From Eubacterium sp. (GTDB lineage: Bacteria > Bacillota > Clostridia > Lachnospirales > Lachnospiraceae), in NCBI GenBank assembly GCA_003486385.1, contig DNFT01000032.1, forward strand, positions 22,987-86,986: a stretch of DNA of 64,000 nucleotides. The letters run 5' to 3'. How positions within the stretch are numbered: the first letter of the stretch is position 1; each line of letters begins with the position of its first letter. Below, in pieces: positions 2,709 through 44,779 of the stretch. The notes under the pieces are model-generated. The model was not told where the DNA came from. It did not search any database and saw only the letters and a program-made list of their open reading frames with translations. Position numbers and translations under genes: made by a program.

Positions 2709-5102
2709 TTATTTTACATCAAGCTCTATGCTATATGTCTTTCCAAGTGACTTGATTGTGAGCTTGCCGCTGCCGCTCTGCCCCATTGTCTTAACGTATG
2801 TTCCTGCTGCGCCACCTATAAATGGCACTACACAAGGTCCGATAATCTCAACAGGTCCCTCAACAGAAAGCTCAACAGGCGCATTGCAATAGTACAGACG
2901 GTTTCCGTTCTCGTCAACCGCTTCCATACGGATTGAAGCCACATCGTAGGTTGAAGCCTCGACAAGCTTTGTCTTATCGATTTTCACAATAAAATCCGCC
3001 GAGGTCATCGGCTGCTTCTTAACAACCGCAACGACTTCTCCGTTTTTGACCGCCTCAAAGCGATAGGTGGTTGCTAAATCTCCCCAGTTGCCTACATAGG
3101 TATTATACATGCGGCTGATATCCTTGAGCGTCAATCCTGAGGTCTTCATTATAAAATTCCTTTTAAGCCTGAGTGCTGCTGAAAGATTGCCGTCTGCGCC
3201 GCCTTCATCCACCATTGCAAACATAAGCTGTTTAAGCGCTTCTGATGTCTCGTGCGGAAGACCTTCGTTAGTCTCGAGAAGGTTGCCGACACGGTCATTG
3301 ATAAGAATAGGTGGATTTACCATATTAGTGAACGGTGAATCTGCATGGGTATATTCGCGAATCATCTGCTCATTCTTATACAGGCGCACGCTGTCTGCAT
3401 TAGTAAGGACATAGAAATCACCTACTGTACATGATGGATGGTCACCTATCTCGACAGATGACGTGACGTAGAGTACATCATTTTTATTACCCTGACTGGC
3501 ATATACATAGGCGGCTGCCTTCGGATTGCGGAACATATCCATAACTCCGTGATAACATATTCTGTCACCGCTTCCAAAATCCCTGTGAGTGTTATAATCA
3601 TTCATGCACCATCCGAAGCATCCTGCTATATCATCCTGCCCAAGCATATCATTTATTACTCTCGCATGTCTTACAGCGTGTGAAAGTCTATGCTCTTCAT
3701 CGTCAAATGATTTCGTAGGGTACATATGTCCGCCATACTCTGAAATCAGGTAAGGCTTTTCAACATCTGAGGTCGCCTCAGACTTTGGTATAACACCCGG
3801 ATTATTTCCGACATGTGAAAAATCATTGTAGGTATATACATCCTCGAGCAGATGGCTCTTCTTAAAGCAGCGCACTCCGCCGGTTGCCCTTGAACGGTCA
3901 AGTGAATGAGCGATTTTATTCGTTCTCTCGTAAAATACATCATCGTCACCTGATTCATTTATGCGGACGCCCCATATAATTATTGAAGGGTGATTACGGT
4001 ACTGCTTTACCATCTCAGACACACTTTCACATGCGATGCGCTTCCAGTTCTCATCACCGACATACTGCCATCCCGGAAGCTCGGTAAAGACAAGCAGGCC
4101 AAGCTCGTCACATTTATTTATAAAATGCTGTGACTGCGTATAGTGTGATGTCCTGACCGCATTCACACATAACTCATTTTTGAGGATGACCGCATCGTTT
4201 TCCTGAACAGACTTCGGCATGGCATATCCGACATACGGGTAGCTCTGGTGTCTGTTAAGCCCGATAAGTCTTAACTTCTTTCCGTTAAGATAGAAGCCAT
4301 CCTTTTTAAATACTGCTGTTCTGAAACCGAATTGTACAGTCTTTTCATCAAGAACTTCGTCCTTTCTTAAAAGCTTGATTGTAAGGCTGTAAAGTACAGG
4401 ATTATCAACACTCCAAAGGCTGATATTATCCACTCTTCTGTTAAGGTGCATGACATTCTTCTTTACAGGTGCCCTGAGAGAGAAGAGTTCATTTCCATCC
4501 TTGTCATTCAAGTATGCTTCCGCCGCATAGTCATCCGAGGCTTCAATATTATTCTTAAAATTGAATGTAATCTCCGATTTCAATATTGCAGGTTCTATCT
4601 CTGTAATGACATATACATCCTCCACATAGTCCTCAGACCTGATGTCAAGATATACCTCTCTGTAAATTCCGCCATATGTCATATAATCAATAACCTTGCC
4701 AAACGGAGGAATATTAAGATTCTCCCTGCTGTCACATACGACCGCAAGGACATTATCGCGGTCCTTTACAAGGTAAGGTGTGATATCTACCGTAAATGCG
4801 GTGTATCCACCACAGTGGGTTTCGCAGAGAATGCCATTTATGTACACATCTGCCTTATGTCCAACAGCTTCAAACGTAAGTAATGCCTTCCTGCCCGTCA
4901 TATCTTCATCAATGCTGAACCTCTTGCGGTAGATAGCTATTTTCTGGTAAATTCCCTCGTCAAAATAATTATAAGGAGTCTCGATTACCGTATGAGGAAG
5001 ACGCACTTCCTCGAATTCGGCATCATTAAACCCCGGCTGTTCCATCTCTTCTTTATAGTCCTGACAAAACTTCCAACCATTATTAAAATTGATACGTGAC
5101 AT
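2709..5102 (-). CDS. Glycoside hydrolase family 2 (beta-galactosidase/beta-glucuronidase-like)
   Basis: 797 aa with GH2 architecture (NGWKF N-terminus, TIM-barrel acid/base region). Confidence 0.75.
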   Translation of the reverse strand: MSRINFNNGWKFCQDYKEEMEQPGFNDAEFEEVRLPHTVIETPYNYFDEGIYQKIAIYRKRFSIDEDMTGRKALLTFEAVGHKADVYINGILCETHCGGYTAFTVDITPYLVKDRDNVLAVVCDSRENLNIPPFGKVIDYMTYGGIYREVYLDIRSEDYVEDVYVITEIEPAILKSEITFNFKNNIEASDDYAAEAYLNDKDGNELFSLRAPVKKNVMHLNRRVDNISLWSVDNPVLYSLTIKLLRKDEVLDEKTVQFGFRTAVFKKDGFYLNGKKLRLIGLNRHQSYPYVGYAMPKSVQENDAVILKNELCVNAVRTSHYTQSQHFINKCDELGLLVFTELPGWQYVGDENWKRIACESVSEMVKQYRNHPSIIIWGVRINESGDDDVFYERTNKIAHSLDRSRATGGVRCFKKSHLLEDVYTYNDFSHVGNNPGVIPKSEATSDVEKPYLISEYGGHMYPTKSFDDEEHRLSHAVRHARVINDMLGQDDIAGCFGWCMNDYNTHRDFGSGDRICYHGVMDMFRNPKAAAYVYASQGNKNDVLYVTSSVEIGDHPSCTVGDFYVLTNADSVRLYKNEQMIREYTHADSPFTNMVNPPILINDRVGNLLETNEGLPHETSEALKQLMFAMVDEGGADGNLSAALRLKRNFIMKTSGLTLKDISRMYNTYVGNWGDLATTYRFEAVKNGEVVAVVKKQPMTSADFIVKIDKTKLVEASTYDVASIRMEAVDENGNRLYYCNAPVELSVEGPVEIIGPCVVPFIGGAAGTYVKTMGQSGSGKLTIKSLGKTYSIELDVK

Positions 5103-15167: not shown

Positions 15168-15968
15168 TTATCTCACCTTGTACTGTAAACGAAGCTTATC
15201 CGCTATAAGTGCAATAAACTCTGAATTGGTTGGCTTACCCTTTCCGTTGCTTACCGTATATCCGAATAATTCTTCTATAGTCTCCATTCTTCCACGCTCC
15301 CATGCAACCTCAATTGCATGTCTGATAGCACGTTCAACCCTGCTGGCGGTTGTATCGTATTTCTTAGCTATCGTCGGATAAAGAACCTTAGTAATGCTGT
15401 TAAGAATATCCGAATCTTCTATAGCCATTATTATTGAATCGCGCAAATACTGGTACCCTTTGATATGAGCCGGGATTCCTACCTCATGAATCATATTGGT
15501 AACATCGGTTTCTATGCTCACCTTCTGGTTTTCATTATTGATATCCGCTGCAAATCTTGTGCTGTTACCGGCTGCAGGATGACGTCCCATATTACTTCTT
15601 ACATACCTTATTCGATTAAGGAGTGTGTTATTGTCAAACGGTTTCATTATGTAATAATTGGCTCCAAGATTGAACGCATCCTCCGTAATTCCCTCCTGGC
15701 CAATAGCTGTTATAATTATAAAAGCCGGCTTCCTCTTTATTCGTGAATCTGAATGTGTTTTTTCCATAACAGTGAGGCCGTCAAGCTTCGGCATAACAAT
15801 ATCAAGCAGAACAACATCCGGTTGCAGTTCACGTACCAAGCTTAGGCATATTTCGCCGTTTTCCGCCTTGCCGACAACCTCCATGTCCTTATCCGTCCTA
15901 ATGATATCTTCCAGAAGCTGCAGCATACGTTCATTGTCATCTGCAATAACAATTCTAAGCTTTCCCAT
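15168..15968 (-). CDS. spo0A: Sporulation master regulator Spo0A
   Basis: REC domain (D..DxxMP) plus the Spo0A-specific C-terminal DNA-binding domain ([15 protein letters not shown]). Start chosen at MGKLRIV. Confidence 0.9.
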
Positions 15969-16185
15969 GTTCCCTCTCACATCCCTATATATAATTTTAT
16001 TTTGCCTGTTCTGTATATCTTCCTGAACAAGCCGGCACCGACCGTCAATAAGTTTATCAATGACTTACTTATATCATCCGCCAATAGCCGCATGCTGTCA
16101 ATACAACACTTAGTTAATATTATAATAGTCATATACTGAGAGTTCAACAGCTTTTTTTAGGATTATGTGAAGATTTAATTCTGAT

Positions 16186-16743
16186 TTAGTCGAATTTTGT
16201 CGAAAGTGAAACTTTCTTATAGTCCAGCCCTTCAATATCTTTCCATATAAAGCTTCCATCTTCATATATCATATAGCTATGCGGGCTGTTTTCCTTAGGA
16301 ATTGATACAGAACCCGGATTTATATACCACATGCCATTCTCACAAATACATGCCGGGACATGTGTATGTCCGTGAAGAAGTACATCGCCCTCCTTATGTG
16401 GTGGCAGGTTCCGGAGATTATAGTGATGTCCATGAGTGGCAAAAATAGTTGTATCTCCATCGAAAATCATACTGTATTCCGCCATTATAGGGAAATCAAG
16501 CACCATCTGGTCAACCTCACCATCGCAGTTGCCCCTCACACATAATATATCGTTTTTTATAGGGTTAAGCATTGAAATGACTTTTTTCGGGTCATATTCA
16601 CGCGGAAGGTCATTCCTTGGTCCATGATAAAGAATATCGCCAAGCAGAAGAAGTCTGTCTGCCTGCTCCCTTTTATATGCCTCAACCATTTTTTCACAGT
16701 AATAAGCCGAACCGTGAATGTCCGATGCTATCATAAGCTTCAT
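16186..16743 (-). CDS. YfcE-family metallophosphoesterase
   Basis: DIHG...GDILYHG...GNCD...GHTH calcineurin-like motifs. GGAGG lies 10 nt upstream of the MKLMIAS start. Confidence 0.8.
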   Translation of the reverse strand: MKLMIASDIHGSAYYCEKMVEAYKREQADRLLLLGDILYHGPRNDLPREYDPKKVISMLNPIKNDILCVRGNCDGEVDQMVLDFPIMAEYSMIFDGDTTIFATHGHHYNLRNLPPHKEGDVLLHGHTHVPACICENGMWYINPGSVSIPKENSPHSYMIYEDGSFIWKDIEGLDYKKVSLSTKFD

Positions 16744-16959
16744 AATTATATTTCCTCCATACATCTTATATATCACAATCTGCTATTGCCAATGCTGCCT
16801 GTGTCTTATACACATTATAATTGACATGATTATTATACATCGTTATGGGGAAGCGTCAATTGGAAATTATGCTTTTCTAAACGTATATGTTTTATTTTTT
16901 GTCAATACATTTTTTAAGAAACTAAAAAAGAAGGTATATTACAACCTTCTTAAATGTGC

Positions 16960-17937
16960 TTATTGTTTCTGTTTATATTCATTCAACAACTGCCTTATTT
17001 CATTCGGAAGCAAATCCCTGTCTGAATCATTTATTTTTTGTCGAATAAAGCGTTTTTCATCGTTAGTCCAGCGGAAATCTTTTTTCATATAGGGTAAATA
17101 TATTTTATCTAATGCATCTAACTGTAGCAGGTCATAATGTTTCAAAATATCGTCATTTGTACAATCTTTTATTGCCTGTTCATCAATTGTTCCATCCTTC
17201 AAGGTATATCTATCTTTGAGCCTTTTATAATGCTTATTCTTTTCTAATGCTTTCCATACCTGCCGCCAATATATTTCAAAGAACAGGTCACTATTTTTAT
17301 TTTTTCTCATAATAGAACATGGCAAGACACTCTCCTGATTTTCTATGTAATCATCATCCAGACGAAAGAAAAAGGTGTTTGGATAGTTTACATCGCTTTC
17401 TTTTCCGGAAGCCATAAAACCAATTCCGAAATATCCGTATTTATTATTTTTATCTTTATACCGCTTCCAAAACAGATACTCTATCTTATCTAGCTTCGTG
17501 GAAAAGTTTTTTATCTTTGAGTAATCAAACCTTACTATTTGCCTTGCATGAATTATATCCAAAATCAACTCACTACTAAAATATTGTATTCTCACATTAA
17601 ATAACTCATTGAAATATGCACTATTTTCAAATTCATTCGTATCAATCGCATCATCGCCATCGCTACACATTCTATGGTACAATTCGGTGGCACTCAAACG
17701 TTTTTCACTGTACTCAAATAGAATAGGATTATCGACAAGATGTTGCAAGCCTAACAAATGCGGCAAATCCTGTGGATTAAATGTAAATCTTATAGTGTCT
17801 CCGTTGCTTAATGGTATCTGGATACTTGTCTTTATCAGCTTTTCATAATCGGCAATAATATTTTTTATTATATCCAAAGGCTTCCTCCAAAAAAAATAAA
17901 TGTCTCCCGGCAAAAACCAGAAGACACTTATAGGCAT
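16960..17937 (-). CDS. Hypothetical protein (325 aa) inside an AT-rich island, with no recognisable domain
   Basis: Long ORF flanked by non-coding AT-rich DNA at 16777-16959 and 17938-18220. It is K/D/N-rich, and no catalytic motif could be assigned by eye. Confidence 0.5.
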   Translation of the reverse strand: MPISVFWFLPGDIYFFWRKPLDIIKNIIADYEKLIKTSIQIPLSNGDTIRFTFNPQDLPHLLGLQHLVDNPILFEYSEKRLSATELYHRMCSDGDDAIDTNEFENSAYFNELFNVRIQYFSSELILDIIHARQIVRFDYSKIKNFSTKLDKIEYLFWKRYKDKNNKYGYFGIGFMASGKESDVNYPNTFFFRLDDDYIENQESVLPCSIMRKNKNSDLFFEIYWRQVWKALEKNKHYKRLKDRYTLKDGTIDEQAIKDCTNDDILKHYDLLQLDALDKIYLPYMKKDFRWTNDEKRFIRQKINDSDRDLLPNEIRQLLNEYKQKQ

Positions 17938-18220
17938 TTTTCACTTTTTCCTCCGGAGAGTAAGATACTGTTGGCTCAATGCATAAACCAACGTGAAGAC
18001 CTCCATTTGCATTTGGTATCGCTCACACAAACTTCATCAGTCAAGAGATTCTCTGCCCGTAAGCTAAAAGAATCTTATTTAATATATGCATAATGTATAC
18101 AAATTATTAACTTTATCATACTTTGTCATACCTTATGACACTTTTGATGGTAACATAAACATGTTGATAAGTCAACAGAATTGATATAATTTTCTTATAA
18201 ACTATATAAAATACAACAGT

Positions 18221-18406
18221 TTACCTCTGCCCTATAGCTCCCACCGGGCAGTTATTCATGACGTTCTCAGCATCGGCAGCATCTTCAATCTTTACCTCTT
18301 CATCGACTGCCTTCGCAACACCATCATCCGTCATGTCAAACACAGCCGGACAGATTCCGTTGCACATTCCACAGCCGATACAATTTTCATTTACATAATA
18401 CTTCAT
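18221..18406 (-). CDS. 4Fe-4S ferredoxin
   Basis: CIGCGMCNGICP and CP cluster-ligand motifs; 61 aa. Confidence 0.8.
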   Translation of the reverse strand: MKYYVNENCIGCGMCNGICPAVFDMTDDGVAKAVDEEVKIEDAADAENVMNNCPVGAIGQR

Positions 18407-18431
18407 ACATATACCTCTTTTTATATTTTTA

Positions 18432-19970
18432 TTATCCCAATAACTTCTTTAAATCCTCTTCCGGGGTTGAGATTGGACCTATATTGTAATTATCCACAAG
18501 CACCTTCAACACATTCGGAGAAATGAATGCAGGCAGAGAAGGTCCAAGCAAAATGTTCTTGATTCCAAGGTGAAGCAATGAGAGCAGAATACATACCGCT
18601 TTCTGTTCATACCATGAAAGAACCATGGAAAGAGGAAGCTCATTCACTCCACACTCAAATGCGCCTGCAAGTGCGACCGCAACCTGAATAGCACCATAAG
18701 CGTCATTGCACTGTCCCATGTCTAGGATTCTAGGGAACGGTCCGATTTTTCCAAGGTCAAGGTCATTGAATCTGTATTTGCCACATGCAAGTGTGAGAAT
18801 AATGCTGTCCTGCGGGGTCTGCTTGACAAACTCTGTGTAATAGTTTCTTCCCGGCTTTGCACCATCGCAGCCTGCAACAAGGAAGAAATGCCTGATTGCT
18901 CCCGCCTTCACAGCTTCGACAATCGTGCCTGCATTTTCAAGAACAGTATTTCTTCCAAAACCGGTCATTACTGTCTTTCCGCCATTGATTCCTGTAAACA
19001 CTGTATCCTCAACAAATCCGCCAAGCTCCAGTGCCTTTTCGATGACAGGTGTAAAATCCTTGTCCTCGCCGACATGTATTATTTCAGGATAGGACACCAC
19101 CTCCGTTGTGAAAACGCGGTCTGAATAGCTCGCCTTAGGTGGCATAAGGCAGTTGGTTGTATAAAGGATAGGCGCCGGGAGATTTGCAAATTCCTTCTGC
19201 TGGTTCTGCCATGCAGTTCCGAAATTTCCTTTTAAATGGGAGTATTTCTTAAGCTCCGGATATCCATGTGCCGGAAGCATTTCGCCGTGGGTATATACAT
19301 TGATTCCCTTATCTTTTGTCTGCTCTAAGAGCTGCTTTAAATCATAAAGGTCATGTCCGGTTATCACAATAAACGGACCTTTTTCAACGGTAAGTGTAAC
19401 CTCTGTCGGCACGGGATTTCCGTAAGTCTTAGTATTAGCTTCATCAAGAAGTTCCATACATGTGAGGTTAATCTCGCCTACCTTGAGGACAAGTGAAAGC
19501 AGTTCATCCATACTCATATCCGAACCGACTGCGCGCAATGCCTCATAGAAGAATGCGTTCACTGTCGCATTCTCATAGCCTAAGACCTGAGCATGGTATG
19601 CGTAAGCCGCGATACCTCTTATTCCAAAAAGAATGAGAGATTTTAATGACCTGATATCTTCATCCGCATGCCATACCCTGTTCATGTCATAGTCCGCGTT
19701 ATTTCCTGAGGCCTCATGCACCTCATTAATCAGCTTCGTTATTGTTTCCTCATTGAAATTTACATTGGTGATAGTTGTAAAAAGGGACTTGATGATAAGA
19801 GCATCATTTGCTTTATTCATCTCGTTTTTCTCTGCAAGTCTTATGACTGCGCCGGTAAGCTTATCCTGAAGATTCGCAATCACTGGTGTCTTTCCGCACA
19901 CACCGCTCCTTGTACAGCCTGTACATCCGGCTGTCTGTTCACACTGAAAACAAAACATATTGTTATCCAT
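18432..19970 (-). CDS. hcp: Hydroxylamine reductase / hybrid-cluster protein
   Basis: N-terminal CFQCEQT...CTGC cysteine motif; 512 aa. AAGGAG RBS upstream. Confidence 0.9.
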   Translation of the reverse strand: MDNNMFCFQCEQTAGCTGCTRSGVCGKTPVIANLQDKLTGAVIRLAEKNEMNKANDALIIKSLFTTITNVNFNEETITKLINEVHEASGNNADYDMNRVWHADEDIRSLKSLILFGIRGIAAYAYHAQVLGYENATVNAFFYEALRAVGSDMSMDELLSLVLKVGEINLTCMELLDEANTKTYGNPVPTEVTLTVEKGPFIVITGHDLYDLKQLLEQTKDKGINVYTHGEMLPAHGYPELKKYSHLKGNFGTAWQNQQKEFANLPAPILYTTNCLMPPKASYSDRVFTTEVVSYPEIIHVGEDKDFTPVIEKALELGGFVEDTVFTGINGGKTVMTGFGRNTVLENAGTIVEAVKAGAIRHFFLVAGCDGAKPGRNYYTEFVKQTPQDSIILTLACGKYRFNDLDLGKIGPFPRILDMGQCNDAYGAIQVAVALAGAFECGVNELPLSMVLSWYEQKAVCILLSLLHLGIKNILLGPSLPAFISPNVLKVLVDNYNIGPISTPEEDLKKLLG

Positions 19971-20109
19971 TATTAAAACTCCTTATTAATATTTTATTTT
20001 GGAACATCCGTCCCCTGTAGTAATTTCCTCTTTCTGTGTAAAATGCTGCCTTGTGGTTTCCTTTCTTTTTTATTACAAATGCATTTTATCGTTTACAGCT
20101 CAAAAATTC

Positions 20110-20125
20110 TGTTGCCATGGCAACA
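20110..20125. promoter_or_regulatory. Perfect 16-bp palindrome TGTTGCCATGGCAACA in the hcp/hcpR divergent intergenic region; candidate Crp/Fnr-family (HcpR-like) operator
   Basis: Palindrome read from the sequence, about 150 nt upstream of the hcp start. Confidence 0.35.
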
Positions 20126-20347
20126 ATTTTAATAGTATAATTTTAATCAAAAATACAATCATCATATATTAAACAGGTGCGAATATGGCGGTAAGTTGTC
20201 TATGCACGCGTTGACAATATAAAAAACAAATCTTCACCATTTTGAAGTGATATCCAATCTGCCATATAGAGGATAATTATTGTAATAAACAGCTGGTGAA
20301 TATTTCTTTTGCGAATATCTGAATTATCGTATTTACGGAGGAGCGTT

Positions 20348-21034
20348 ATGAGTGAGAAAGTTTCTTATACTGAATATATAGATACAATTGCAGAATGTCC
20401 TTTATTTAAGGATATCCCTGTTGAAAAAATTGAAGAAATGATACTTTTTCTTAATGGTTTTGCAAAGACCTTTAAAAAAGGGGAAACTCTTGTAAGGCAC
20501 GGTGAACCCTTTAGATACGCCGGAATTATACTCAAAGGAAAAGTTGAAGTCTCGTATACCAATTACCAGTTTGATAAGTTAAATGTAAATCATTTCACAG
20601 CTCCCAATGTCTTTGGTGAGGCTCTCGCAATAAAAAAAATCAGCTATAGCCCAATTCAGGTTGATGCCATAGCTGACTGTATTATTCTTTTTATTGATTT
20701 GAATTATCTGATGTGTTCAAAGGAAAGATGTTGTTCTGCATGCACATTCAATCATCAGTTATTGTTAAATCTCACAAGCCGCATGGCTGACCAGAACATC
20801 TTTACCAACCTTAAACTTCGGATTCTCAGCCAGAAGTCGCTCCGTGACAAAATCATTGTATATCTCTACAGCTTACAGCCGGACAATAACAACGTGAGGA
20901 CAATCCCCTTCTCGCAGACCGCACTGGCTGAATTTTTAAACGTCAACAGAAGTGCCCTTTCAAGGGAATTGGGTAGAATGCAGGATGAAAATATCATCCG
21001 GTTAAACGGAAAGGCTTGTGTCATTTGCGAATAA
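20348..21034 (+). CDS. Crp/Fnr-family transcriptional regulator (HcpR-like, divergent from hcp)
   Basis: N-terminal cNMP-binding beta-barrel and a C-terminal HTH (NVNRSALSRELGRM). GGAGGAG RBS before ATG at 20348. Confidence 0.8.
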   Translation: MSEKVSYTEYIDTIAECPLFKDIPVEKIEEMILFLNGFAKTFKKGETLVRHGEPFRYAGIILKGKVEVSYTNYQFDKLNVNHFTAPNVFGEALAIKKISYSPIQVDAIADCIILFIDLNYLMCSKERCCSACTFNHQLLLNLTSRMADQNIFTNLKLRILSQKSLRDKIIVYLYSLQPDNNNVRTIPFSQTALAEFLNVNRSALSRELGRMQDENIIRLNGKACVICE

Positions 21035-21145
21035 TATGTATTTTCATCCATAAGTAGCATTGTGCTTCCTTACAGCTTCTACAGCATATAGTTTTAAAAT
21101 CTATAACACTGTGCAGACAATATATGTTTTTGGCTGTAAACAAGT

Positions 21146-21451
21146 TTACATGTCCTTCTGCCTCATAATGTCCAGATGATGATTCCGCACCCAAAGGCAC
21201 ATATCAATTATTACTGCGGTCATGTTGATGAAATAAAACACAAAGCCAAGAATAAATATCCAGTCCAAAGCTATTCCCTGTGATACCTGCAGGCTTTTTC
21301 TTATAATTCCACAGATATAACCTATAAGAATAAAGACTTCAAACACAATGCTTTTTCCCTTAGCTGTTCTGGAAATATAAGATTTATGAATGGAGATAGG
21401 CCATGACAGTCCCCAGCAAAAAATCATAATTGCTTCTAAAAGATTAATCAT
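21146..21451 (-). CDS. Small (about 101 aa) 3-TM membrane protein
   Basis: Hydrophobic ORF. The start ATG is 9 nt downstream of the AGGGG inside repeated element A. The longer annotated ORF would be an artefact of translating that element. Confidence 0.45.
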   Translation of the reverse strand: MINLLEAIMIFCWGLSWPISIHKSYISRTAKGKSIVFEVFILIGYICGIIRKSLQVSQGIALDWIFILGFVFYFINMTAVIIDMCLWVRNHHLDIMRQKDM

Positions 21452-21530
21452 TGTTATACCCCTGCATACTGCAAGCATAGCTTGCAGTACTGCCACCAAT
21501 AAGTTGTTTGAAAGTTTCACTTTCAAACTT
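21452..21530 (-). promoter_or_regulatory. Structured leader/intergenic element, copy A. It contains the perfect palindrome TTTGAAAGT-GAA-ACTTTCAAA (21507-21527), a second hairpin, and the RBS.
   Basis: About 85% identical to 42365-42440. It begins 2 nt after the pcp stop codon. Confidence 0.5.
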
Positions 21531-22185
21531 ATACACCTGCCAGATAATCAATCATAATCTGGATTCCCTTCACCATATCATCAAGCTCCATCGAATAGCG
21601 GTTGTCAAGTTCCTTTTTACCCTGTAGCTGCTCCGGCAAAAACGGGACATGTACAAAGCCCGAAATCATATTCCCTGATTTTGAGGCAAGGTGTGCACCG
21701 ACGTACATCACATGATTGCACACATAGGTTCCGGCTGAATAGGAGGCGCGGCAGCCTATCCCTGCTTCATTCACTTTTCTTATCAAATCCCATACCGGCA
21801 AGGTCGAAAAATATGCATTTTCTCCTTCCGGGTATATTACACTATCCACCTTTTCAACTCCCGCAGAGTCCGCTAAAACTGCAGTTCCGTCCGAATACAT
21901 GCCGTTGTCCATATTGATGGCTACACGCTCAACATGGATATACGGCGAATTCCCGGCTTGTCCAAGTGACAAAATAATGTCCGGGCTTTCCTTTTTTACA
22001 AGCTCTTCCAAAATTCCGGTGGTACGGTCAAACTCAACCGGAAGAATCCGCTTAATAAGCTGTATACCCTCCGGTGCTGTTATTCTCTCAACTATAAGCT
22101 GGGATGGATTTAGTGTCCTGCCGTTGAATGCCTCGAAACCGGTCAGTAATATTTTTTTAGATGCTTTGATGTTTCCTTTTTCCAT
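21529..22185 (-). CDS. pcp: Pyrrolidone-carboxylate (pyroglutamyl) peptidase I
   Basis: GFEAF...GQAG...C..V Pcp motifs; 218 aa. Confidence 0.85.
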   Translation of the reverse strand: MEKGNIKASKKILLTGFEAFNGRTLNPSQLIVERITAPEGIQLIKRILPVEFDRTTGILEELVKKESPDIILSLGQAGNSPYIHVERVAINMDNGMYSDGTAVLADSAGVEKVDSVIYPEGENAYFSTLPVWDLIRKVNEAGIGCRASYSAGTYVCNHVMYVGAHLASKSGNMISGFVHVPFLPEQLQGKKELDNRYSMELDDMVKGIQIMIDYLAGV

Positions 22186-22417
22186 ATTTTTTTGTAAACT
22201 CCTCCGTCATTGGCAGCTTAAGTAATCATTCCTTCTGTAATTTAAAAAATATATTTCTAAGAATATATATAATCACATTTTCGAACATTTTCAATATTAC
22301 TTCATTTTCACCTTAAAATCAACTTTAATATTACTTCAGACAATCTTTATTAGGTGCTGAATTCTAAAATAAGAGGACAGATTTCTCCATCCTCTCAAGT
22401 TTTCCGCTAATACTGCT

Positions 22418-41641: not shown

Positions 41642-42364
41642 TTATACAACTATAGTTTTCTCATACCCAAGCTCACTCAAAATACCAGCAAGCTCATTCA
41701 TGTAGTCCGTTCCGGGTGTGAGCATGCGGGCATACTCCGCCCGGACTCCCATCGGCCTATAGGAAATTAACTTGAAATGAAAAGAATCCGGCTTGTACAA
41801 GTCGCGCATCATCTCTCCAATAGCCCTCACAGAATGCTTTCCGTCATAAAGCGACGGGCAGATTACGCATCTTATCTCCTCAAGCCTGCCGATTGTAGCT
41901 AACAGTCTGGCATTGGCAATCACAGTTTCATTGCCTGTCCCGGTAATTTTCCTGTGGATATCGCTGTCATAAGCCTTTATGTCCAGAAGGACGCCATCCG
42001 TCACGTCAAGTAAATCCTGCTTGCCGGCAAAATCAATGGTACCATTGGTATCTATCATAGTGCTCAGCCCCAGCTTTTTGGCCTTTGTGAACAGCTCGGT
42101 CAAAAAATCGTACTGGAGCATACATTCACCGCCGGAGACAGTAATACCTCTCACAAAAGGAATCTGCTTTTTGACCTGTTCAAGCACCTCATCGGAGGAC
42201 ATCTCTGTCACAGTTGTAATATTTTTATCGCCGTACTTATCCCTTGTCTCAGGATTGTGACAATACAGACAATTGATATTGCAGCCTTGCAAAAAGATTG
42301 CTGTTCTGTTTCCGGGTCCGTCAACCGATGAAAAAGGAATAATTTTATTAACTCGTGCTCTCAT
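41642..42364 (-). CDS. yjjW: Glycyl-radical enzyme activating protein (YjjW family, radical SAM)
   Basis: CNINCLYCHN radical-SAM motif, paired with a YjjI-family gene. Start chosen at MRARVNK, 6 nt after the AGGGG in element B. Confidence 0.8.
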   Translation of the reverse strand: MRARVNKIIPFSSVDGPGNRTAIFLQGCNINCLYCHNPETRDKYGDKNITTVTEMSSDEVLEQVKKQIPFVRGITVSGGECMLQYDFLTELFTKAKKLGLSTMIDTNGTIDFAGKQDLLDVTDGVLLDIKAYDSDIHRKITGTGNETVIANARLLATIGRLEEIRCVICPSLYDGKHSVRAIGEMMRDLYKPDSFHFKLISYRPMGVRAEYARMLTPGTDYMNELAGILSELGYEKTIVV

Positions 42365-42440
42365 GTTATACCCCTGCATACAGCAGGCACTGCTTGCTGT
42401 ATTGCCAATAATAAGTAGTTTGAAAGTTTCACTTTCAAAT
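42365..42440 (-). promoter_or_regulatory. Structured leader/intergenic element, copy B (palindrome TTTGAAAGT-GAA-ACTTTCAAA at 42419-42439)
   Basis: About 85% identical to 21452-21530. It starts 2 nt after the yjjI stop codon and ends at the yjjW RBS/ATG. Confidence 0.5.
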
Positions 42441-42441
42441 T

Positions 42442-43986
42442 TTATCTAACCTTACGCTCCAATATTCTGCCATTCTTCTTTGCACCCGTGCCAAGCTGGG
42501 TGGTGTTCTGCAGTACAGCATTGCCCTGCTCATACTTCTCAATCTCAGATCTCTTTACCAGATATCCTGTGATTCTGATTACATCGCTGTCCGATGAGTA
42601 AAATGAAAGGTATCGGATGTCCTTTTGCCATGAGCCCTTAATAATGTCAAGCACATACTCCGGATTCTTATGTACTGTCAAATCCACCGGGAAAATATCT
42701 CCTGTACCCGAAACAAAATACTTGTGGAAATTGCTGATTACATTGAGATGGTCTACAAGCTCCTCCGGCTCCTCACCAATCGGAATACGTGTCCCCGGTG
42801 CAATCCCCTTGTCCTCCGCAATACCAACCTGAGCATGAAGCAGGAAATGGCTGCCTGTACCCTCACAATATTTATTAAAATGATTATTATTAAATTCATT
42901 TATGATATCCATAATCTCAACACCAAGCTGTGTAGCGGCATCCGAATGACCGAATCTGTCATCCTTACCCTCTTTAGTCATAAGGACATTGACCGCATCC
43001 GCAAGACCGACAAGTCCAAACATTCCGGTGAAGCTGTCCCTATGAATAAGCCCCTCTTTTGCAAGGAAATTCGATTCAAAAAAGCCTGACTGCTCTACCT
43101 CAAACGCAATACGTGCATCCATATATTTTGCCATGACATCCATAACATAAGGAAGCTGGTTGTTTTTAAAATCTTCAATTCCTGCAGAGCGCTCGGCAAT
43201 ATGTCCCAGAATCAGACGGCAGAGCGTGTAAGCACCACCACCAAGCAGCAAGCCATTATAACAGCTTGCAATGACGTAATTCTCACCCAGTTCATTTTTG
43301 AACATCCGGTGATTTGCAAAACTAGGCTTGGCTGTCTTAAGCGCACACTTGACACAGGCAAGTGCAAAATCATCATCTGTAATCTCCGGGTCATACTTCA
43401 TTGAAATATTTGGAATTGCATTTTCAAGTTCAGCTTGAACCTCCAAAATCAGATAGCCGGCTCTGGTAGCCTTCGGTCCAATATCCGCATGTGAAAACGA
43501 ATCAAGCACCGTACGGTCAACATTTGTAAAGAAAAGCTTAAGGTGCTTCTTAACCGTCGCATCATCCATATCCGTGATAAACGGCTCTAAAAGATAGTCA
43601 AGCTGTCCTAAATAAACCGGATAATTTGTAATGCTAGGCACATGCTTATATATAATCAACAGGTCATTAAGTGCCTCAAAAAAATCTGTTGGCGGTTCAA
43701 GCTGCAAAAATTCAGAGCCATTCTTAAAAAACTTCTCATAGTCCGGGATGATATATCTAGGTCTCATCGGTGCATGACCTTCAAAAAGATCACAAATACA
43801 ACGGTGTTCATCATCACAGTTAAGCAAATCGTCCAGTCCCTCCGGAACGTCAAGTACCTCAAGCATACCATCCGCCGCATTGGCAAGATTGGTGAGCTTC
43901 TGCTCATGCGTAAGCGCCTTATTTGTAATAATACCAAGAATATTTTCTCTTGTTTTTTCAACTCTTTCCATTGATATAGGTCTCAT
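42442..43986 (-). CDS. yjjI: YjjI-family (DUF3029) putative glycine radical enzyme
   Basis: About 515 aa and collinear with a radical-SAM activase, as in E. coli yjjI-yjjW. Start chosen at MRPIS (GGAG upstream). Confidence 0.7.
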   Translation of the reverse strand: MRPISMERVEKTRENILGIITNKALTHEQKLTNLANAADGMLEVLDVPEGLDDLLNCDDEHRCICDLFEGHAPMRPRYIIPDYEKFFKNGSEFLQLEPPTDFFEALNDLLIIYKHVPSITNYPVYLGQLDYLLEPFITDMDDATVKKHLKLFFTNVDRTVLDSFSHADIGPKATRAGYLILEVQAELENAIPNISMKYDPEITDDDFALACVKCALKTAKPSFANHRMFKNELGENYVIASCYNGLLLGGGAYTLCRLILGHIAERSAGIEDFKNNQLPYVMDVMAKYMDARIAFEVEQSGFFESNFLAKEGLIHRDSFTGMFGLVGLADAVNVLMTKEGKDDRFGHSDAATQLGVEIMDIINEFNNNHFNKYCEGTGSHFLLHAQVGIAEDKGIAPGTRIPIGEEPEELVDHLNVISNFHKYFVSGTGDIFPVDLTVHKNPEYVLDIIKGSWQKDIRYLSFYSSDSDVIRITGYLVKRSEIEKYEQGNAVLQNTTQLGTGAKKNGRILERKVR

Positions 43987-44028
43987 AATTGTCTCCATTT
44001 GTTTCATAATATTTATGTAATAATCTAA

Positions 44029-44624: not shown

Positions 44625-44751
44625 ACAGTCAATAATCTCCTTTCTATAAATGTTTCTTTAAATATATCATTTACAGCGTAAATTTACAATATCTATATAA
44701 GCTCACAATCCATTATAACCATATATGAACACCATTATTTATACCCTTTTT

Positions 44752-44776
44752 GGGACAGGGGTCTGACCCCTGTCCC
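44752..44776. repeat. GC-rich hairpin GGGACAGGGG-TCTGA-CCCCTGTCCC, copy 2
   Basis: Same stem as copy 1, 3 nt after the rlmH stop. Confidence 0.55.
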
Positions 44777-44779
44777 AGA

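Follow-up and report, generated by a model that had tools for sequence, protein, structure and literature searches.

Conserved tandem 0A boxes upstream of spo0A, and a palindrome beside them that is most likely coincidental, in an uncultured gut Lachnospiraceae

Predicted Spo0A boxes and promoter of spo0A

In the 64-kb stretch of DNA analyzed here (the window), which comes from the uncultured human-gut Lachnospiraceae 'Eubacterium sp.', two tandem predicted Spo0A-binding sites lie upstream of spo0A, and one of them overlaps a 15-nt palindrome that matches a hairpin of a repeat element found elsewhere in the window. We consider it likely that the tandem sites are the functional part of this region and serve spo0A feedback, and that the palindrome is functionless and matches the hairpin by coincidence. 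The spo0A gene (15168 to 15968, minus strand) encodes 266 aa with the Pfam domains Response_reg and Spo0A_C, and upstream of it lies the gene for a yfcE-like metallophosphoesterase of 185 aa (16186 to 16743, minus strand), whose last 10 codons span the 15-mer and both 0A boxes. The promoter-distal box (box 1) is a perfect consensus heptamer, TGTCGAA, at 16198 to 16204 on the plus strand, present exactly as the earlier note had claimed, and the second, 0A-like box (box 2; AGTCGAA, 16188 to 16194, plus strand) keeps G2, C4, and G5 and lies directly against the stop codon of yfcE. The core sequence of the 0A box is TGTCGAA, in which the contacted bases are G2, C4, and G5 (PMC3485338). The two boxes, AGTCGAA-TTT-TGTCGAA (16188 to 16204), are arranged head to tail, 3 bp apart and in a 10-bp register. 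The pattern GTCGAA-N4-GTCGAA is unique in the window, with 0.11 occurrences expected at one mismatch or fewer. Because the single heptamer TGTCGAA shows no enrichment in the window (9 occurrences, with 5.8 expected), the case for the 0A boxes rests on their tandem arrangement together with their conservation.

Conservation was assessed by comparing the spo0A loci of lineages with Spo0A proteins 98, 93, 89, 87, 83, 77, and 75% identical. The box pair was kept in six of these related lineages (L134, L133, L012, L011, L013, and L014; Spo0A 98 to 77% identical), where box 1 on the gene strand is TTCGAC[A/G/T] and the pair reads TTCGAC[A/G/T]-AAA-TTCGACT. A consensus scan predicted a sigma-A-type spo0A promoter, TTGAAC-17-TATAAT, at 16119 to 16147 on the minus strand (10/12 matches). 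This promoter is conserved in the window, L134, L012, L133, and L011, and in all five the first base of the box pair precedes the -35 element by exactly 57 bp, whereas the distance is 58 bp in L013 and 47 bp in L014; the -10 element of L012 is TATACT instead of TATAAT. The 57-bp offset is fixed despite a promoter-to-ATG distance that varies from 81 to 179 nt. Relative to the predicted spo0A start, the pair is located at about -93 to -77. The spo0A leader (15969 to 16118) of this species and that of L133 are approximately 90 to 100 nt longer than those of L012 and L011. A second sigma-A-like match is present in this leader (TTGACA at 16101, a spacer of 17, and GATGAT ending at 16073), and public gene calls place there a 51-aa ORF that is probably spurious.

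The effector domain of Spo0A (residues 149 to 265) aligns end to end with PDB 1LQ1 and 1FC3 (E of ~1e-49), which are the B. subtilis and B. stearothermophilus structures, and its recognition helix is identical, matching that of the B. subtilis DNA complex. We infer that Spo0A binds at this site: a phosphorylated Spo0A dimer would occupy the two head-to-tail boxes at 16188 to 16204, and the bound Spo0A~P would feed back on the predicted spo0A promoter 57 bp downstream. The upstream position of the boxes suggests activation, and repression is also possible. That Spo0A autoregulation might overlap the site had been proposed before, and the tandem 0A boxes, conserved in sequence, in their 3-bp spacing, and in their distance from the promoter, argue in its favor.

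Related arrangements are known. The spo0A gene of B. subtilis is autoregulated via boxes 0A1 to 0A4, and C. difficile Spo0A binds with high affinity to its own upstream region (PMC3485338). As in these two species, the boxes described here are of the TGTCGAA type and lie upstream of spo0A, near the promoter. Unlike in those species, they lie upstream of a single sigma-A-like promoter rather than between or downstream of promoters, they overlap the last codons and the stop codon of the upstream gene, and no sigma-H promoter was recognized. A footprinted Spo0A site consists of two boxes 3 bp apart (PMC2731898). Site 0A-1 of phage Nf/phi29 resembles the present pair in having two head-to-tail heptamers 3 bp apart in a 10-bp register. 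The abrB site in the 1LQ1 complex also contains two head-to-tail heptamers 3 bp apart. Both the 0A-1 and abrB sites overlap or follow core promoters and repress, whereas the pair described here is centered near -85. The boxes would be a further example of a known arrangement, with Spo0A autoregulation as its likely role, in this uncultured gut bacterium, and conserved tandem 0A boxes of this kind could be an anchor for predicting Spo0A regulons in gut spore-formers.

A two-hairpin repeat element that carries the palindrome

The 15-mer GAAAGTGAAACTTTC, with 6-bp arms and a 3-nt center, has three exact matches in the 64-kb window, at 16202 to 16216 on the plus strand and at 21510 to 21524 and 42422 to 42436 on the minus strand. 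The latter two, previously described as leader elements, belong to one stretch of about 75 to 80 nt that is common to the two sites. This repeat element was modeled with a covariance model (CM) built from 14 type-A copies and run with filters off. Copy 1 (21454 to 21528, minus strand; CM score, 108 bits; boundary ambiguous by up to ~6 bp) carries the second 15-mer and is inserted after the stop codon of pcp and ahead of the ATG of a small membrane ORF. Copy 2 (42361 to 42442, minus strand; CM score, 99.7 bits; coordinates of the CM match, with the yjjW ATG included) carries the third and lies between two minus-strand genes, the yjjI-like gene (Pfam YjjI-like; 42442 to 44007) and the yjjW-like gene (Radical_SAM; 41642 to 42364). 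The element consists of hairpin 1 (TTTGAAAGT-GAA-ACTTTCAAA), a spacer, a 13-bp hairpin 2, and GCAGGGG-TATAA, after which comes the start codon of the next gene. Hairpin 2 shows compensatory differences between copies 1 and 2, and the RNA fold of copy 1 has an energy of -29.1 kcal/mol (z = -5.3), with -10.2 kcal/mol (z = -3.65) for hairpin 1 alone. No Rfam match to the element was obtained, either with the whole window at the gathering threshold or with the leader region at E up to 10.

The window was compared with ten loci of conspecific strains, in all of which Spo0A is 100% identical. The element was present at the pcp/small-ORF junction in nine of them and absent from strain L003, in which the empty site reads GGCAGGTATATAA joined to CAATG, so that the pcp stop stands directly before CA-ATG and the filled allele represents a clean 75-bp insertion. 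This one empty site defines no clear target-site duplication and leaves a boundary ambiguity of ~5 to 6 bp (TATAA). The supposed leader elements are copies of a dispersed and probably mobile repeat, as judged from this polymorphism and from the copies in other genomes. Since both sit in the same dispersed repeat, the two copies of the palindrome are not independent of each other. Identities as a TIR-type MITE or as an IS200/IS605-type element were considered and rejected: the element lacks terminal inverted repeats, its two hairpins are dissimilar, and the left flanks are not a constant target.

One genome per species was scanned for the pattern TTTGAAAGT-N3-ACTTTCAAA. At least 15 copies of the element were found in the Lachnospiraceae MAG CAKRJT01, some of them in head-to-tail tandem, and further copies were found in at least seven other Clostridia assemblies; several foreign copies are identical end to end to window copy 1 and lie at unrelated loci. 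Loci with the ~75-nt element are L022, L031, L035, L039, L044, L057, L060, L064, L075, L076, L080, L082, L094, L106, L113, L119, L130, and L131. All copies keep one orientation, immediately following the stop codon or Shine-Dalgarno sequence of the gene upstream and mostly 1 to 6 nt before an ATG; the element carries its own Shine-Dalgarno sequence, GCAGGGG, and the ATG is mostly that of the host gene. Downstream of the copies lie genes for a methyltransferase, a TypA-like GTPase, a 2HCT transporter, an aldo/keto reductase, FlgK, an aminoglycoside acetyltransferase, Dus, ClpX, ribosomal protein S8, and a radical-SAM activase. These genes are functionally heterogeneous and form no coherent regulon; the earlier note had envisaged a set of genes controlled together, and the genes downstream of the element elsewhere have no common function.

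Variants of the element keep hairpin 1 (AAGTTTGAAAGT-NNN-ACTTTCAAAC) and have a 3' module that is different and also highly structured. They were assigned to type B (L051, L052, L055, L069, L096, L099, and L107), type C (L018 and L045), and type D (L089, L109, and L117). Across types A to D, hairpin 1 is conserved in sequence, beyond its structure, which hints at a partner that recognizes this sequence. A pseudoknot is possible in types B and D, where base pairing could occur between the loop GCAGCAGGC and GCCTGCGGC, the latter beside the Shine-Dalgarno sequence.

Partial copies were observed as well. An orphan right half of the element (GCATGCTTGCAGTATGCAGGGGTATAA) occurs in two different genomes, at L076 (7190 to 7285) and at L035 (minus strand, beside tandem copies), where it immediately follows the conserved 3' end of an AAA_14/DUF4143-like ATPase gene. 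It may reflect either a gene inserted into the element or a larger unit with the same right end, and it was the only structure seen in a search for a longer autonomous element. In a Lachnospiraceae MAG (L100, ~3950 to 4010), a solo full-length hairpin 1 (TTTGAAAGTCTGACTTTCAAAC) lies between the S14 and S8 ribosomal protein genes without the second hairpin. A scan of IMG/VR for hairpin 1 gave two matches. Unrelated, longer palindromic repeats of the form CATGTAA-TTTGAAAGT-NNN-ACTTTCAAA-TTACATG, frequently accompanied by another, partial copy close by, were found in Bacteroidota (Algoriphagus, Pedobacter, and relatives), at loci including L019, L023, L029, L030, L034, L038, L068, L098, and L108, among others.

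A description of the element was searched for in the literature and not found, and searches on MITEs in Lachnospiraceae returned nothing relevant. The closest described analogues of the element that we found, which do not concern the copy of the palindrome beside spo0A, are Neisseria REP2 and Borrelia IR, which are dispersed repeats with two 5' stem-loops and a ribosome-binding site just upstream of genes (PMC3184786). Like them, the Lachnospiraceae element has no terminal inverted repeats, contains two internal stem-loops and a ribosome-binding site, and adjoins genes. It differs from them in lacking an evident promoter and in lying inside operons, right after the upstream stop codon; its sequence is not similar to theirs, and no coordinated regulation is known for it. 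The element is the more interesting object of the two discussed here, as its insertions seem to fall behind one gene and ahead of the start codon of the following one, and it brings a ribosome-binding site of its own.

The copy of the palindrome upstream of spo0A

The earlier note was correct in reporting an exact copy of the 15-mer near spo0A, within the last codons of the yfcE-like ORF; its position is 16202 to 16216, one base off from the 16203 to 16217 given there, and it does lie upstream of spo0A, at 234 to 248 nt from the ATG (15968) rather than at approximately 225 nt. On the gene-sense (minus) strand, the 15-mer reads GAAAGTTTCACTTTC and codes for part of K-K-V-S-L-S in the yfcE-like tail ...KKVSLSTKFD*, inside the last 10 codons of an ORF whose stop codon is at 16186 to 16188. 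It shares 3 nt with box 1 (16198 to 16204). Its center is GAA where that of the other two copies is TTC, so relative to gene direction this copy is inverted.

Against the CM of the element, the spo0A-side site aligned at model positions 7 to 21 only, with 12.9 bits (E = 1.3), compared to 108 and 100 bits for the true copies. It was rejected as a copy of the element, as the second hairpin and the GCAGGGG-TATAA ribosome-binding module are absent by this model. Only 6 of the 9 stem pairs of hairpin 1 (TTTGAAAGT/ACTTTCAAA) are present, those of GAAAGT/ACTTTC; the outer TTT/AAA pairs are missing, with GTC and TTA as flanks, and identity to the element copies stops at 15 nt on both sides. Its placement is also unlike that of the element, being inside yfcE codons, inverted, 234 nt from the spo0A ATG, and without an indel relative to L133 and L012.

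The alignment of L134, L133, and L012 with the window is colinear at this site, keeps the reading frame, and contains no indels. The gene strand of the window reads AAG AAA GTT TCA CTT TCG ACA AAA TTC GAC TAA (15/15 matches to the 15-mer); L134 (Spo0A 98% identical) is identical across the 15-mer (15/15) and differs by a single A-to-G substitution in the spacer of the box pair. The corresponding sequences are AAG AGA TTT TCA CTT TCG ACG AAA TTC GAC TAA in L133 (89%; 13/15) and AAA AGA TTT ACA CTT TCG ACT AAA TTC GAC TAA in L012 (93%; 11/15). In both, the arms are no longer complementary, and the palindrome is absent from L011, L013, L014, and L015. G5 of the 15-mer, in codon GTT, which completes the stem, is derived in the species of the window because L133, L012, and L011 (87%) have TTT, and a second difference from the nearest relatives is AGA in place of the AAA of the window. 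By this comparison, the exact 15-mer contains one or more bases that are new to the lineage of this species, and the TTT-to-GTT substitution together with the AGA/AAA difference would have turned a 13/15 match into an exact one. Apart from its right part, GAAAG, the 15-mer would be made up of codons for the C-terminal tail of the yfcE-like protein, which is poorly conserved. The 15-mer is fixed among all strains of the species that were examined. The assembly of L012 carries a repeat element with the same GAA-loop hairpin (L060); L012 thus has the element and lacks the palindrome at spo0A, and the two do not travel together. The earlier note had suggested that the palindrome is an operator of a dimeric regulator controlling spo0A, yjjW, and the small membrane protein together. 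This interpretation is not supported, given the lack of conservation of the palindrome upstream of spo0A in sister species and the membership of the two leader copies in a dispersed insertion element, which a conspecific strain lacks.

None of the dinucleotide shuffles of the window gave three matches to the 15-mer, even at two mismatches. Because homology within one repeat accounts for two of the three hits, only one further match calls for an explanation, and the expectation of about 1e-4 on which the three hits had been declared nonrandom does not hold for nonindependent hits. In simulations with Markov models of order 1, 3, and 5, fitted to the window, the probability of finding any 15-mer from either element again at another place in the 64 kb was ~0.01 to 0.04. 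Such a recurrence is uncommon, yet well within reach when many windows and motifs are scanned. The GAAAG part of the 15-mer belongs to the 0A box as its A-rich flank, and the relatives have it as well. The 15-mer beside spo0A is most likely a species-specific coincidence without a function of its own, and the palindrome motif should not serve as a regulon signal, with two copies in a seemingly mobile repeat and the third most likely due to coincidence. Counting against the reading that we prefer, a coincidence at 1 to 4% is still uncommon, the 15-mer is fixed in the species, and the promoter is a consensus match only.

These same observations bear on an alternative that we regard as improbable, in which the palindrome would be a DNA operator, or an RNA or single-stranded DNA hairpin, for a protein that also binds hairpin 1 and so links spo0A with the element-bearing genes. 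An exact 15-nt identity with a chance of 0.01 to 0.04, the retention of the hairpin 1 sequence across types A to D, and the fixation of the 15-mer within the species would all be accounted for by such a protein. However, the site has only 6 of the 9 stem pairs, without the outer TTT/AAA, in the orientation opposite to that of the element copies, and the palindrome was not kept in sister species, one of which bears the element. The heterogeneity of the downstream genes also argues against a shared protein, as does the finding of no other core-only copy of the 15-mer in 510 kb of Clostridia loci, most of them element bearing.

Very improbable, in our estimate, is that the element once inserted in reverse orientation between yfcE and spo0A and has since decayed to the 15-mer. 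The element does insert beside stop codons at gene junctions, the site is at the end of yfcE, and L133 retains 13 of the 15 positions. A remnant is nevertheless hard to derive from loci that are colinear, in frame, and free of indels in the window, L133, and L012, and from a similarity that ends at 15 nt on both sides; moreover, the match improves in the derived lineage, with G5 being new, which is the reverse of decay.

The 6-bp spo0A-side hairpin, folded as RNA, has an energy of -4.0 kcal/mol (z = -0.74). It was rejected as an intrinsic terminator, since the fold is weak, no T-run follows, and the terminator scan did not report it. There is scarcely any likelihood that a hairpin in the yfcE mRNA is a 3'-end stabilizer, or a terminator insulating spo0A from read-through, for although the 6-bp stem is perfect and stands at the very end of the yfcE ORF, this fold has little stability and no U-tract, was unreported by the scan, lies within the ORF before the stop codon, and is not kept in the relatives. 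We would give hardly any credence, either, to the 15-mer being the recognition core of hairpin 1 in an undescribed dispersed leader element of Lachnospiraceae, with the copy beside the 0A boxes as a functional solo site for a hairpin 1-binding protein, be it a mobilizing enzyme or a host factor, that modulates or competes with Spo0A autoregulation. The preferred explanation of this region is still one of functional tandem Spo0A sites next to a palindrome without function.

Neighboring genes and a CRP-type palindrome

The genes concerned on the minus strand are spo0A, the yfcE-like gene, a PBECR4 nuclease gene, hcp, the small membrane ORF, pcp, spoIVB, and the yjjW-like and yjjI-like genes, and a Crp/Fnr gene lies on the plus strand. 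The adjacent Crp/Fnr protein had been named as a candidate regulator acting through the 15-nt palindrome, a role that is unlikely: the geometry differs, and the Crp/Fnr gene has its own CRP-type palindrome at 20110 to 20125. The 15-mer was rejected as a Crp/Fnr operator on the basis of its 6-N3-6 geometry, which is not 5-N6-5 or 5-N4-5. The palindrome at 20110 to 20125, TGTTGCCATGGCAACA (TGTTG-CCATGG-CAACA), is perfect over 16 bp and is located between hcp and the divergent Crp/Fnr gene. It is likely an operator of an HcpR-like Crp/Fnr regulator, unrelated to the 15-mer.

A weak CM hit at 44734 to 44777 was found to be an ordinary G+C-rich terminator hairpin and not a copy of the element. The interval from spoIVB to the yfcE-like gene (window positions 16744 to 22417) was observed to be an insertion hot spot when L011, L012, L001 to L010, and L134 were compared. 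Nothing is inserted there in L011, an AAA ATPase gene occupies the interval in L012, and this species has pcp, the small ORF, crp, hcp, a ferredoxin gene, and the PBECR4 gene in it. Among strains, a GH26 gene is present or absent in this interval, and the PBECR4 gene is intact or split.
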